Shown piece after piece: positions 44,341-62,807 of a DNA stretch of 64,000 nucleotides. The stretch's first letter is position 1. Every line of letters starts with the position of its first letter. Under the pieces are notes generated by a model. That model ran no database searches. It was given only the letters and a program-made list of their open reading frames with translations, and was not told the DNA's origin. The stretch is from Octopus sinensis (Eukaryota). Location of the stretch: contig NC_043003.1 in the NCBI RefSeq assembly GCF_006345805.1, positions 117,366,001 to 117,430,000 on the forward strand, written 5' to 3'. The position numbers and the translations under genes were made by a program.

Positions 44341-45629
44341 CGAGGGACTTTCAATAAGTAATGCCTCTGACCCACTTGCAGTTGTTTGATCTAGCTGAAA
44401 TTTTGCATGTGCAATTATTTATATCTCTATAGATTAAGTGGCAAATTACAGCTCTGAGTTAATTTGGGTTTCTGATTTACAGGTGTTTGAACTGAGTCAA
44501 GTGTGAAATGGAGCCTGTTGAGTGCGAGCAGTGATCCAGTTTTTGTATTTGAAAGGACGCACACCACAGGAGACTTTTGATGAAATGAAAGTAACTTATG
44601 GTGATGATGCCCCATCATATGACCTTGTAAAACGCTGGCATCGTGAATTCAAACATGGTCGAACTCTGTGGAAACCAGCTCCAGATCTGGTCACCCCCTT
44701 CTGCCATTGATGAGGCATCTGTCCGTCAAGTTGAGGCTGCCATTTTGAAGATCGATGCATAACTATTCGCAAATAGCCCATTAGGTCAAGATTAGTACCG
44801 GGTGTGTCTGTGGAAACTATCATTCATGACCATTTGCATATGCAAAGGTGTCTGCCAGATGATCCCAGGTTGCTCACACCTTTCCAGAAGCAAGAATGCG
44901 TCGAGTGCTCGAGGATGAATTTGGAGATATGCCAAGAAGATGAGTCAAAATTTTTCAAAAGACTGATTACACAGGATGAAACCTGGGTCCATCACTATGA
45001 TTCAGAGACCAAAGCCCAGTCAATGCAGTGGAAGCACCGTGACTCACCTCCTCCAAAGAAGGCAAGGGTGCAGCCCTCCGCTGTCAAGGTCATGCTCACA
45101 GTCTTCTGGGACCAGGACGGAGTATTGATGACAGATTTCCTAGCAGAGGGTTCCACAATTACAGGAGCCTATTATGCTTCACTTTTGAGGAAATTAAGAG
45201 AAGCTATCAAAATCAAGAGGCGGGGCAAGATCAGCAAAGGCATCCTCCTCCTGCAGGACAACGCTCCGGTCCACAACTCGCGTGTCGCCAGATCAGAAAC
45301 ACAGGCATGCTGCTATTAACTCCTCCCCCATCCCCCCTACTTTCCTGACCTTGCACCCTCTGATTTTCACCTCTTCCCAGCCATGAAGTTGTTTTTGAAA
45401 GGAAAGCATTTCACAGATGATGCAGCCTTGATTTCTGAAGTCACGTCGTGGTTGGAGGACCAAGCTGGGGTCTTCTACAAAAACGGTCTCCAGCGCTGCA
45501 TCAAACAATGGGAGAAATGCGTAACTCTGGGTGGTTCCTATGTAGAAAAAGACTAATAACTGTGCCAAGTTTCGTTGCTCTACTACTATGGGAAGTGGGT
45601 CAGGGGCATTACTTATTGAACGCCCCTCG
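44341..45629 (+). mobile_element. Full-length mariner (DD34D) element in a (TA)n site
   Basis: TIRs CGAGGGACTTTCAATAAGTAATGCCTCTGACCCACTT / AAGTGGGTCAGGGGCATTACTTATTGAACGCCCCTCG; about 1.29 kb. Confidence 0.92.
44508..45556 (+). pseudogene. mariner transposase pseudogene (frameshifts and stops)
   Basis: RAVIQFLYLKG, VKRWHREFKHG, ITQDETWVHHYD, LLLQDNAPVH, PDLAPSDFHLFP, WEKCVTLGGSYVEK. Confidence 0.92.
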
Positions 45630-45660
<31 letters not shown>

Positions 45661-45667
45661 TGGCAAG

Positions 45668-46036
45668 AGGGAGATAAATTAATATTAATTTTAATATCAA
45701 TCGAGGACCGAATGAACTGATGAAGTCACGGACACTTGAATTATGCAAGTAATTCTTTTGTTAAGACCGAAACCGAGGTATGCATTTAAGTCTGTTTTTT
45801 ATTTAATTTTTCAGAACCAAATTTGGTTCTGGTGTTCGCTGAATTCTTCCTCTAGAGAATTTCCCCTGTAGTTTGATCGTTGATGATCTTCTTCTAGCAT
45901 TCTGGCCGGCTACCTAGCAGGCCAGCCCTGCCAATATACACATATATTTGAATTTTCTCTGACTCCTCAGATTTTTTGAATGCTGGACTACTGGTTTTAA
46001 ATTGATATTAAAATTAATATTAATTTATCTCCCTCA
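45668..46036 (+). mobile_element. HHR-bearing Penelope-pLTR/retrozyme-like element with a 35-bp inverted copy of its 3' end at its 5' side
   Basis: GAGGGAGATAAATTAATATTAATTTTAATATCAAT vs ATTGATATTAAAATTAATATTAATTTATCTCCCTC; body homologous (inverted) to 59880-60228. Confidence 0.75.
45712..45785 (+). ncRNA. Type-I hammerhead ribozyme
   Basis: Stem I ATGAA/TGCAT (1 mismatch), CTGATGA, stem II GTC/GAC with inner hairpin, GAAA, stem III ACC-GA-GGT, predicted cut after GTA (45780). Confidence 0.7.
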
Positions 46037-46048
46037 ATTTTTAAAATT

Positions 46049-46184
<136 letters not shown>

Positions 46185-58789: not shown

Positions 58790-59390
58790 TGAAGGAGACA
58801 GAGGCAGACAGAACAACAGGAACAGAGAGAGAGACAGACAGACCAGACAGACGACAGACAGACAGACAGACCAAAACTCTATTTCTTGGACAAAACACTT
58901 CAATGTCCAAAGACACTCATGAAACGAATCCTTTAAGGCAGAAATAGAATCAAAACTGACGAAGTCAATTATATTTTTTAATAAATAAATAAATTCATTT
59001 TCTCTGCTCAATCTACTGAGAATTTAAATCGTAGTTTTTCTCCTTTGGAAATCGAGTATTAACAGCAATTTTCATATATATATATATTATATATATAATA
59101 TATATATATATATGTGTGTGGGTGTGTGTGTGTGGTGTGTATGTATGCATGTATGTATGCAATTAGGTTTGTTTATTTAGGTGTATCAGCTTTATGTCAT
59201 TGTGTTCTTAATATAGAAATTTGCTTATCTTGTGCTTTAAAATTCACAACAGGATGTAGTTCGTGGGGAGTTTGGTTGCTAAAAGATTTCTAACTAGGAG
59301 TGTTCTTGATGTTATTCAGGGCAGTTTAGAAAGCTTAATCTTTGTGACTGTACCTATATATATATATATATATATATATAACATATATAT

Positions 59391-59491
<101 letters not shown>

Positions 59492-59595
59492 CATATAATA
59501 TAAAAGAAAAGAATGTTCTCTCTAGAGAAAAATTCAGGGACACCAGAACAATATGCGGGCAAGACAGATGAAAATTCTATAAACGGCAAGAATTA

Positions 59596-59671
59596 ATCGC
59601 AGACCTAATTTTCGCCTATTAACGAATGAACCACTTACGCAATCCCCCGTCCGTAGGCTCGTCAGTACGAT
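59596..59671 (-). ncRNA. Type-I hammerhead ribozyme (downstream copy)
   Basis: Minus strand ATCGTA CTGACGA GCCTA...TAGGC GAAA ATTAG GTC TGCGAT; stem III degenerate. Confidence 0.72.
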
Positions 59672-60146
59672 CGTTCCACAGGTAATATAATTTGTAAAAC
59701 TAATCACCAGTTTTCCGTATAAAAACAGACACGTGCTTAGTTTCCCCGATTACATTGGAGTTAATTTCAAATGTCTGAGTTCTGGCGCGCTAAAATTCCG
59801 GAAACAAAATCTGCAGTATATAATTTACTGCAGTTAATGCTGCCTATTAGAGAACATATATATTTTAACATTTAAATAATGAGGGAGATAAATTGAATAT
59901 TAATTTAATTAATATCAATTTAAAACCAGTAGCCTAGCATACAAAAATCTGAAAAATCAGAGAAAATTCAAATACATGTGTATATTTAAAGGAATAAAAC
60001 ACCACTAAGTGGTCAGCCGTATGCTAGAAGTAGATCACCTACGATCAAACTACAAAGAAAAGAATGTTCTCTAGAGAAAAATTCAGCGGACACCAGAACA
60101 ATATGCGGGCAAGACAGATGAAAATTATATAAAAAGCAAGAATTAC

Positions 60147-60221
60147 TCGCAGACCGGCGGTTTCGCCTACTAACAAATGAATCACTTACGTAATCCCTCG
60201 TCCGTAGGCTCATCAGTACGA
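60147..60221 (-). ncRNA. Canonical type-I hammerhead ribozyme (upstream copy)
   Basis: Minus strand TCGTA CTGATGA GCCTAC...GTAGGC GAAA CC-GCC-GGTC TGCGA: all core nucleotides, three stems, GUC triplet. Confidence 0.85.
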
Positions 60222-60984
60222 TCGTTCCTTATATATATGGACAGAGAGAGCGTTTTGATGTTCGCACACTTTCCTTGATTGGTGATATCGACGCTGTTAA
60301 CACTTACCTTCAGTTATTGTAGTTCGATGGTCGAAGAGATATTCAAAGGACGTAGGTAGATGCAGAGGTCAGTTGGTCAGCACATTTCTAAGTTGGAGTT
60401 AAACGGTTTTGTTTTTCCGTATTTATTTTGGTGCGTGTTAGCGCAGAGGAATAAACAGCACCAATCTTAAAATTCCCAAGATACGCTGCAGAGTAAGATG
60501 GCGCCCGTACGACCTCAAACAGGGGAGAAGTCACGCTCATAAATATACATAGATATGTAAGTATTGTGTGTGTGTGTGTGTGTGTGTGAGTATGTGTTTG
60601 CGTTTGTATGTCTATTTGTGCGTGTGTGTGTGTGTGTGTTCGTGAGCGTGTAACATATTTTATCTTGGGCCTGTTTCGTTACACATCTCAAAATAAATTA
60701 GTCTTTTTTTTTTCTTCTTTCTGTAATTACAGTCATGAAACAAAATCTGTATACGGCGGCTGTATTTTTATCGATAGCGATATCTATGGTAAATTGGACT
60801 TTTCCGTTTATCTTGGAGACTTACATATAAAAATATCTCTCAGTGCCAATACAGACATTTACCAACACAAATTAAACCAGGAACTATTTGTAATCATTCA
60901 ACAATGCCTATTCCATTTGTATTTTGTTTTATTAATCGCGTTATTTTTTATTTCCTCCTATCTTTCTCTTTGTCTTTTAAAATA

Positions 60985-62082: not shown

Positions 62083-62119
<37 letters not shown>

Positions 62120-62123
<4 letters not shown>

Positions 62124-62434
62124 GTTGTATACTGTCAACATAACGTGACAGTCACGTATGGAAATTACACCACTGCTGTTTAGCCCTAGGAAGCATCGAC
62201 GTTTCTTGTCGGCTTTGACATATTTCCTGTGTCCTTATATTTGTGAAGGGGAGGCAAGCACCCCTACCAGCCAAGATTCACACCTGAGGACATGCATGTT
62301 TCTGGGTCTTAACCCGTCATAAGGGCTAAACAGCGGTGGTGTAATTCCCATACGGGACCGTCACGTTATGTTGACAGTATACAACCACTCTATCGCTCCA
62401 CCACCGATCAAGTCTCTTTGAGACATTTAGAAAT
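62120..62434. mobile_element. Unclassified element with ~68-bp inverted arms
   Basis: 62120-62187 is the reverse complement of 62322-62389; related to 5273-5654. Confidence 0.65.
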
Positions 62435-62469: not shown

Positions 62470-62479
<10 letters not shown>

Positions 62480-62807
62480 TAAATAAAAGAATGGAGTCGA
62501 ACGAAGATGTTAGCAAAATTCCTTTACTCTCGACATATGTTTCGAAGACAGCATAGTTTCATTCCAAAGGAATAAAGGGTGCAAGATGCAATCTTCTCAT
62601 CGTTTTGTTCATCATGTAGGCAGTCATCGAAATTTTTGTTTGTCTTGATGTTGAGAGAGGCTCCCTTTCTTTCCTGGTGAGAAGATTGCATCTTGCACCC
62701 TTTATTCCTTTGGAATGAAACTATGCTGTCTTCGAAACATATGTCGAGAGTAAAGGAATTTTGCTAACATCTTCGTTCGACTCCATTCTTTTATTTATTC
62801 ATATATA
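62470..62807. repeat. Perfect ~130-bp inverted repeat (78-bp spacer) of an HHR-bearing pLTR-like sequence
   Basis: 62470-62599 is the reverse complement of 62678-62807. Confidence 0.92.
62669..62750 (+). ncRNA. Hammerhead motif with A6G core change
   Basis: CTTTC CTGGTGA GAAGA...TCTTC GAAAC ATAT GTC GAGAG. Confidence 0.6.

Follow-up and report, generated by a model that had tools for sequence, protein, structure and literature searches.

A non-coding hammerhead repeat family in the octopus genome, likely mobilised in trans by Penelope-like elements

Animal non-LTR retrozymes, as the available text of two sources describes them (PMC7229834; bioRxiv 10.64898/2026.07.22.740005), are non-coding tandem repeats with a type-I hammerhead ribozyme (HHR) in each unit and a GC content below 50%. 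The monomers are strongly self-paired, and thousands of copies occur as dimers to multimers and as solo copies. Invertebrate units measure 150-450 bp, those of the 2026 survey 51-972 bp, and a mollusc retrozyme is known from the mussel (350-390 bp). Retrozyme repeats carry no motif that points to a helper, according to the accessible part of a 2020 review (PMC7761336), and in vertebrates the link to Penelope-like elements (PLEs) is drawn, in the available preprint text, only from distribution and similarity to pLTRs (bioRxiv 10.64898/2026.07.22.740005).

The other closely related systems are the EN+ PLEs and the hammerheads of their pLTRs (PMC8557442; PMC11167929; PMC4209133; each consulted as partial text). 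In published accounts, PLE insertions are partial tandems that have lost 5' sequence and stand next to an inverted copy; their tail is often one-ended, and they show a bias towards microsatellites (PMC8557442). For an anole PLE, reverse transcription in vitro starts at two internal sites that bound the tail (PMC11167929).

We analysed a 64-kb stretch of octopus DNA (the window, to which unprefixed positions refer). At 59503-60228 it holds what we take, with a probability of roughly 80%, to be an old 1.3-unit copy of a non-coding hammerhead repeat family, an animal non-LTR retrozyme likely mobilised in trans by an autonomous PLE. In its sequence-level features the family agrees with the animal retrozymes described above, from the non-coding tandem units with their type-I hammerheads, low GC content and strong self-pairing to the thousands of multimeric and solo copies. 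At ~545-550 nt its unit exceeds the size quoted for invertebrates but fits the range of the 2026 survey, and its helix II is extended, at 45 nt. Its two fixed 3' ends, its inversions by fold-back and its preference for (TA)n targets have no description in the available text of the animal retrozyme papers; cleavage and circles, predicted for the octopus family, have been shown for those retrozymes. With EN+ PLEs and pLTR hammerheads it shares 5' truncation, partial tandems, a neighbouring inverted copy, a 'tail' bounded by two 3' end sites, a microsatellite bias and a palindromic short helix III. It differs from them in having no ORF, a tail of ~110 nt where PLEs have 30-40 nt, full helices I and II in place of the minimal motif of PLE pLTRs, and no sequence match to the sampled autonomous families. 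Non-autonomous Chlamys PLEs such as MRC1 (PMC8557442, partial text) have 3' ends in common with autonomous families and, for the most part, no canonical hammerhead; the octopus family has the hammerhead, and no partner was found among the sampled loci. Overall, the octopus hammerhead repeat looks like a family that is new but of a familiar kind (animal non-LTR retrozyme or non-autonomous PLE), with unusually clear insertion footprints. Full-text literature searches listed no description of an octopus or other cephalopod hammerhead repeat, though the family may already be catalogued in supplements, Repbase or Dfam.

The insertion at 59503-60228 and its two hammerhead motifs

Scanning the 64 kb of the window with a loose type-I hammerhead descriptor gave two matches and no more; both lie on the minus strand, and their C17 positions are 60152 and 59602. 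In 100 dinucleotide shuffles the mean was 0.04 matches and the maximum 1; two matches never occurred. The predicted cut sites are 550 nt apart, and the initial annotation had named the same two positions. The features of the locus are as follows.

59503 to 60228, minus strand: the entire 726-nt insertion; subfamily A, 1.3 units long, truncated on its 5' side where HHR1 begins
60134 to 60228, minus strand: HHR1, type I; CUGAUGA at 60216-60210, extended helix II at 60209-60165, GAAA at 60164-60161
60161 to 60153, minus strand: HHR1 helix III, near-palindromic; predicted cut after C60152
59585 to 59677, minus strand: HHR2; CUGACGA at 59665-59659, GAAA at 59613-59610, helix III broken, C17 at 59602
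59602 to 60151, minus strand: cut-to-cut monomer, 550 nt, 34% GC, non-coding, predicted to be strongly self-paired
59355 to 59502, no strand: (TA)n tract adjoining the insertion's 3' end
60229 to 60238, no strand: short (TA)n at the 5' end; a target-site duplication is unreadable inside the microsatellite

HHR1 is complete as a type-I motif, with core, NUH site, three helices and an open helix I, and its helices I, II and III are those of the canonical minus-strand ribozyme originally claimed. Helix I extends past an internal loop, the 45 nt between the core halves form the extended helix II with a GUAA tetraloop cap, and helix III has 3 bp and a 3-nt loop. As a monomer, the catalytic fold is predicted to lie 6.2 kcal/mol above the minimum-energy fold. 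For HHR2 the core, helices I and II and the cut site at 59602 stood, but helix I starts at 59670, one base from the position first given. Helix III of HHR2 is a damaged 8-nt palindromic variant, a form found in 1 of 54 subfamily A motifs, and its predicted self-duplex energy is +0.8 kcal/mol, compared with -10.2 kcal/mol for HHR1. Recognition by Infernal with the Rfam hammerhead models, suggested as a check, failed, probably on account of the 45-nt helix II: the window gave no match at the gathering threshold, and 59400-60400 gave none at E<=10.

The diverged direct repeat is present as annotated (60228-60054 against 59677-59503 on the minus strand, with 159 identical positions in 177 aligned columns). 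The longest Met-initiated ORF in the insertion encodes 66 aa, in keeping with the statement that no meaningful ORF lies between the cut sites; RT and GIY-YIG reading frames, which would mark an autonomous PLE, are absent from the unit and were not joined to it in any locus read. The 3' end of the insertion, at about +98 from the cut, is atypical for the family.

About 75 nt upstream of the insertion there is a strong splice-donor-like site (60300-60312, minus strand), and the insertion, on the same strand, may lie in an intron. Elsewhere the window contains a perfect 130-nt inverted repeat (62470-62599 / 62678-62807) and a 72-nt one of 93% identity (62116-62187 / 62322-62393).

The repeat family and the conservation of its ribozyme

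When the HHR end and the spacer were searched against the 2.72-Gb source genome, they drew 1,202 and 2,085 candidates, respectively; 40 were scored per query, and the matches were spread over many contigs (C1-C30). In other copies the spacer runs directly into the next HHR, and tandem arrays exist in subfamilies A and B with units of 516-553 nt, which makes 59678-59880 part of the unit and not unique flank. The tandem arrays anticipated for the unit were found; one (G000:C2:2545381-2552368) has nine full-length head-to-tail units, partial units and an inverted head. A 20-mer of the unit common to subfamilies A, B and C has 1,831 exact matches in the genome, its reversed control none, and the family thus numbers at least 1,800 copies. 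The repeat unit is ~545-550 nt long and non-coding, with 33-38% GC, and falls into at least three subfamilies. The initial view of the locus as a relic of a non-coding, hammerhead-bearing, multi-copy retroelement is borne out by this unit, its arrays and the 20-mer count. A second family copy lies in the window itself:

45667 to 46061, plus strand: subfamily B, 75% identical; one hammerhead, a short 5' inverted arm, 3' end at site 2 (defined below) in (TA)n

The sequence directly before it (44777-45620) is presumably a mariner transposase remnant, by the look of its translation.

The subfamilies are ~70-75% alike; subfamily C, found with loose ends of assembled contigs as a lead, is ~70-75% identical to A. 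Mean pairwise distance in the HHR region was 10.3% in subfamily A (66 segments, 50 loci) and 1.7% in subfamily B (58 segments, 25 loci), overlapping loci having been removed and both sets having been picked by likeness to the queries. Judged by these distances, subfamily A is old and subfamily B young. The insertion at 59503-60228 is an old, decayed relic and an ordinary member of its family.

The ribozyme has been kept while its letters changed. Core anchors are intact in 54 of 68 full-length HHR regions of subfamily A, 59 of 59 of B and 18 of 27 of C. The letters of helices I and II differ among subfamilies with the pairing kept; the cut triplet is mostly GUC in A, always GUA in B and always GUU in C. 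Among 19 hand-picked HHRs, which represent about three independent lineages, three of the six helix-I pairs have changed on both sides, and 93% of cells pair, compared with 24-54% when the strands are slid. In the cut-to-cut monomer, helix I is predicted to bring the two ends together. Of the 59 subfamily B copies, 58 carry an A-C mismatch where helix II begins at its base. Helix III exists in several variants, and the common ones are perfect or near palindromes with loops of 0-3 nt, a design described for dimer-cleaving metazoan HHRs (PMC4209133, partial text). Two consecutive complete HHRs, the mark of an 'active' retrozyme in bioRxiv 10.64898/2026.07.22.740005, occur at other loci, for example in subfamily B arrays; for the insertion at 59503-60228 they are doubtful because of the helix III of HHR2. 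Folded as circles, one unit of each subfamily gave z-scores of -4.4 (A), -4.0 (B) and -3.9 (C) against 30 shuffles. In the whole-unit consensus 15 of 115 pairs have changed on both sides across 10 units, a count made on the same alignment from which the structure was derived. Taken on sequence evidence, the ribozyme looks selected, although the high predicted energy of HHR1's catalytic fold as a monomer and the mismatch in subfamily B weigh against this.

We also considered the unit as an intron and rejected this reading. A donor-like motif lies in loop II and an acceptor-like one near 59945, and both belong to hairpins that are conserved while their letters differ among subfamilies. Assembled contigs showed no listed GT-AG joint, though such an absence is no proof.

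At least four other repeats with type-I hammerhead-like motifs were seen in flanking sequence (L140:3036-3629; L102:742-1177; L125:5350-5800 and L136; L127:5450-5800). Several of them have a palindromic helix III, a partial tandem or inverted structure, and TA flanks, and the genome seems to hold many hammerhead-repeat families.

Insertion footprint and the search for an autonomous partner

For the analysis of insertion ends we took the first 100 listed exact 20-mer matches on contig C1 and three earlier loci; after six duplicates were dropped, and with one place missing, this gave 136 segments in 87 loci, chosen by position to avoid query bias. The 3' ends fall at two fixed sites in 121 of the 136 segments, 37 of them at +165 to +190 from the cut and 84 at +270 to +310, in a sample that favours site 2 by requiring a motif at about +222 to +241. 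In the insertion studied here these sites correspond to:

59962 to 59987, minus strand: first of the family's two 3'-end sites (site 1), at about +175 to +185 counted from the cut; an AT/AC-rich hairpin enclosed by a conserved stem
59842 to 59882, minus strand: second 3'-end site (site 2), at about +280 to +300; it lies shortly beyond the unit's best-conserved module

We infer that site 1 is an internal start of reverse transcription and site 2 a second one. The 3' flanks are TA-repeat-like in 82 of 136 segments (controls 300 nt further, 7 of 136), and the 5' ends are variable. A head-to-head inversion of two arms is present in 44 of 87 loci. One arm ends at each site in 34 of these 44, and site 2 is used twice in one; among single-arm loci 38 of 43 end at site 2. 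In 19 of the 44 inverted loci no more than 30 nt separates the two 5' ends, where 8.7 such loci were expected (permutation p=0.0001; alignment over palindromic junctions may inflate this count), and such closeness suggests fold-back. Taken together, this footprint closely matches the PLE type, and we assign it to that type by analogy.

The footprint bears on whether the copies could have arisen by local duplication, or as an ordinary satellite that DNA recombination has spread, with a merely incidental hammerhead. Tandem arrays exist, as such a process would give, and the two repeats at 59503-60228 are only 90% identical. Yet the copies are dispersed over many contigs, the ribozyme helices are kept across subfamilies, and HHR1 is nearer to the distant copy L002 (2.9%) than to HHR2 (8.1%). 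Fixed 3' ends, variable 5' ends, inversions and TA targeting also argue against it; the end structure largely refutes this reading, which we consider highly improbable.

A PLE-type footprint would also fit if the copies were only the 5'-truncated ends (pLTRs) of an autonomous, perhaps catalogued, PLE, and vertebrate retrozymes do resemble pLTRs in the available text of bioRxiv 10.64898/2026.07.22.740005. The initial annotation had named this outcome as one that would overturn it, and no ends of an ORF-bearing PLE were found among the copies inspected. The unit closes on itself: its own tail stands upstream of the HHR, with up to nine full units in a row. We followed 30 position-sampled loci by eye over the 300 nt upstream, and none continued into an ORF or into non-unit sequence that they had in common. 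The unit profile (nhmmer, blastn) showed no terminal-repeat homology to 50 partly overlapping GIY-YIG loci, giving only two apparently independent insertions; these were 50 of many such loci, supplemented by 20 larger regions and 3' ends read by eye. In the Naiad, Chlamys and Hydra consensus files of PMC8557442, consulted in part, all three unit motifs tried were absent, although line breaks could hide a match. On this evidence we regard the copies as unlikely to be pLTR ends.

Candidate helpers for the reading we prefer, mobilisation in trans by an autonomous PLE, are at hand. A GIY-YIG family search of the genome gave 147 scored matches, and several loci have intact ORFs of 775-781 aa with a GIY-YIG match, an RVT_1 match just under the cut-off and a cysteine-rich linker, which marks the Neptune and Nematis clades (PMC8557442, partial text). 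A helper protein would most likely be of a Neptune/Nematis type active in the genome. One PLE family is young, with eight loci at least 99.1% identical over 474 nt and copies that end in TA. Octopus Naiads also favour (TA)n, and some carry a 'half core' (supplement to PMC8557442, in its available part).

The locus L125:1532-4990 and its relatives represent a young PLE with an intact 781-aa RT/GIY-YIG ORF, an upstream ORF and a 3' region of ~1.1 kb. This PLE family has a hammerhead-like motif of its own, with a palindromic helix III, ~70 nt before the TA-embedded end; its core variant has U at position 3 and A at position 8.

A possible replication cycle and what it would mean

Tandem copies would be transcribed, and hammerheads with a short palindromic helix III would cut mainly as dimers. 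The released monomer, its ends brought together by helix I, would be ligated into a circle. A PLE RT/GIY-YIG protein would then nick a (TA)n target and begin reverse transcription at the internal site 2 (~+290) of the RNA, running for a variable length and often past the cut site. The process would end by direct joining, or by fold-back into an inverted arm closed at site 1 (~+180). We advance this complete scheme tentatively, with the odds somewhat against it as a whole: a covarying, hammerhead-processed circular RNA of ~550 nt, copied by a PLE through rolling-circle reverse transcription that sets out from site 2 and, after fold-back, is closed at site 1. For the circle step taken singly, and given the main reading, circles are slightly favoured as the usual template.

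The circle step is the only one opposed by a variant of the same PLE-mobilised scheme in which the usual template is uncut linear multimer RNA from the arrays, the hammerhead is weak or protein-dependent, and circles are minor. Segments cross the cut site in 47 of 136 cases, in 37 of 87 loci and twice in 6 of 87, which indicates that the template was often continuous there. Similarly, of 69 passes at the 30-nt bin that surrounds the cut site, 50 run on beyond it, which fits a linear multimer, although read-through is equally expected from a ligated circle. Nor do 5' ends cluster significantly within 5 nt of the cut (6/57 vs. 23/356, p=0.20), as the linear template would have it. Against that template stands a modest excess of 5' ends at -5..+24 (19/69 vs. 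62/435, nominal p=0.006, for a bin chosen after looking), though the similar excess at -95..-66, the 5' edge of the HHR (10/44), where the insertion at 59503-60228 also starts, suggests stalling at structure. We do not take the 5'-end excess as a sign of cleavage, as it is bin-dependent and stalling at structure explains both excesses.

Sharing of minor alleles within single insertions was frequent both in subfamily B (289/429 comparisons, against 2,861/14,995 between loci) and in subfamily A (454/883, against 4,870/41,757). Rolling-circle copying would give this pattern, which also fits linear transcripts of uniform arrays. Variants mixed within one insertion fit linear multimers better, and the insertion at 59503-60228 is a case in point. 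One sub-lineage accounts for HHR1 and for unit positions 188 and 275, a different one for HHR2, and an insertion containing two sub-lineages was not copied round a single circle; template switching or a mixed array is the likely origin. A second case of likely template switching is the subfamily B insertion L092:616-2415, in which three haplotypes are mixed. A single circle cannot give the mixed variants of either insertion. Work on other systems points both ways: in the available text of PMC11167929 the main substrate of the anole PLE is unprocessed RNA and cleavage is not required for insertion in vitro, and 8 of 9 Xenopus retrozyme dimers showed no cleavage (bioRxiv 10.64898/2026.07.22.740005, partial text). 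Mussel, coral and axolotl retrozymes, on the other hand, form circles (PMC7229834, partial text), and the octopus core and helices are kept across subfamilies ~25-30% apart. Linear multimers as the usual template are a possible account, overall well short of probable, but close to an even proposition if the main reading holds.

For the copy at 59503-60228 itself, double cleavage to a circle, as the initial annotation proposed, is unlikely. Its HHR2 helix III is broken and its two ribozymes come from different sub-lineages, and it probably releases no circle itself.

The family shows PLE-type insertion marks directly and in numbers, which bears on how animal retrozymes are mobilised. If the two-site reading is true, these insertions would be a direct genomic record of retrozymes hijacking PLEs in an invertebrate, and both a young subfamily (1.7% pairwise) and intact candidate helper ORFs would be available for reconstitution. 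The presence of a young subfamily and young intact PLEs in one genome makes the link between retrozymes and PLEs testable in vitro.
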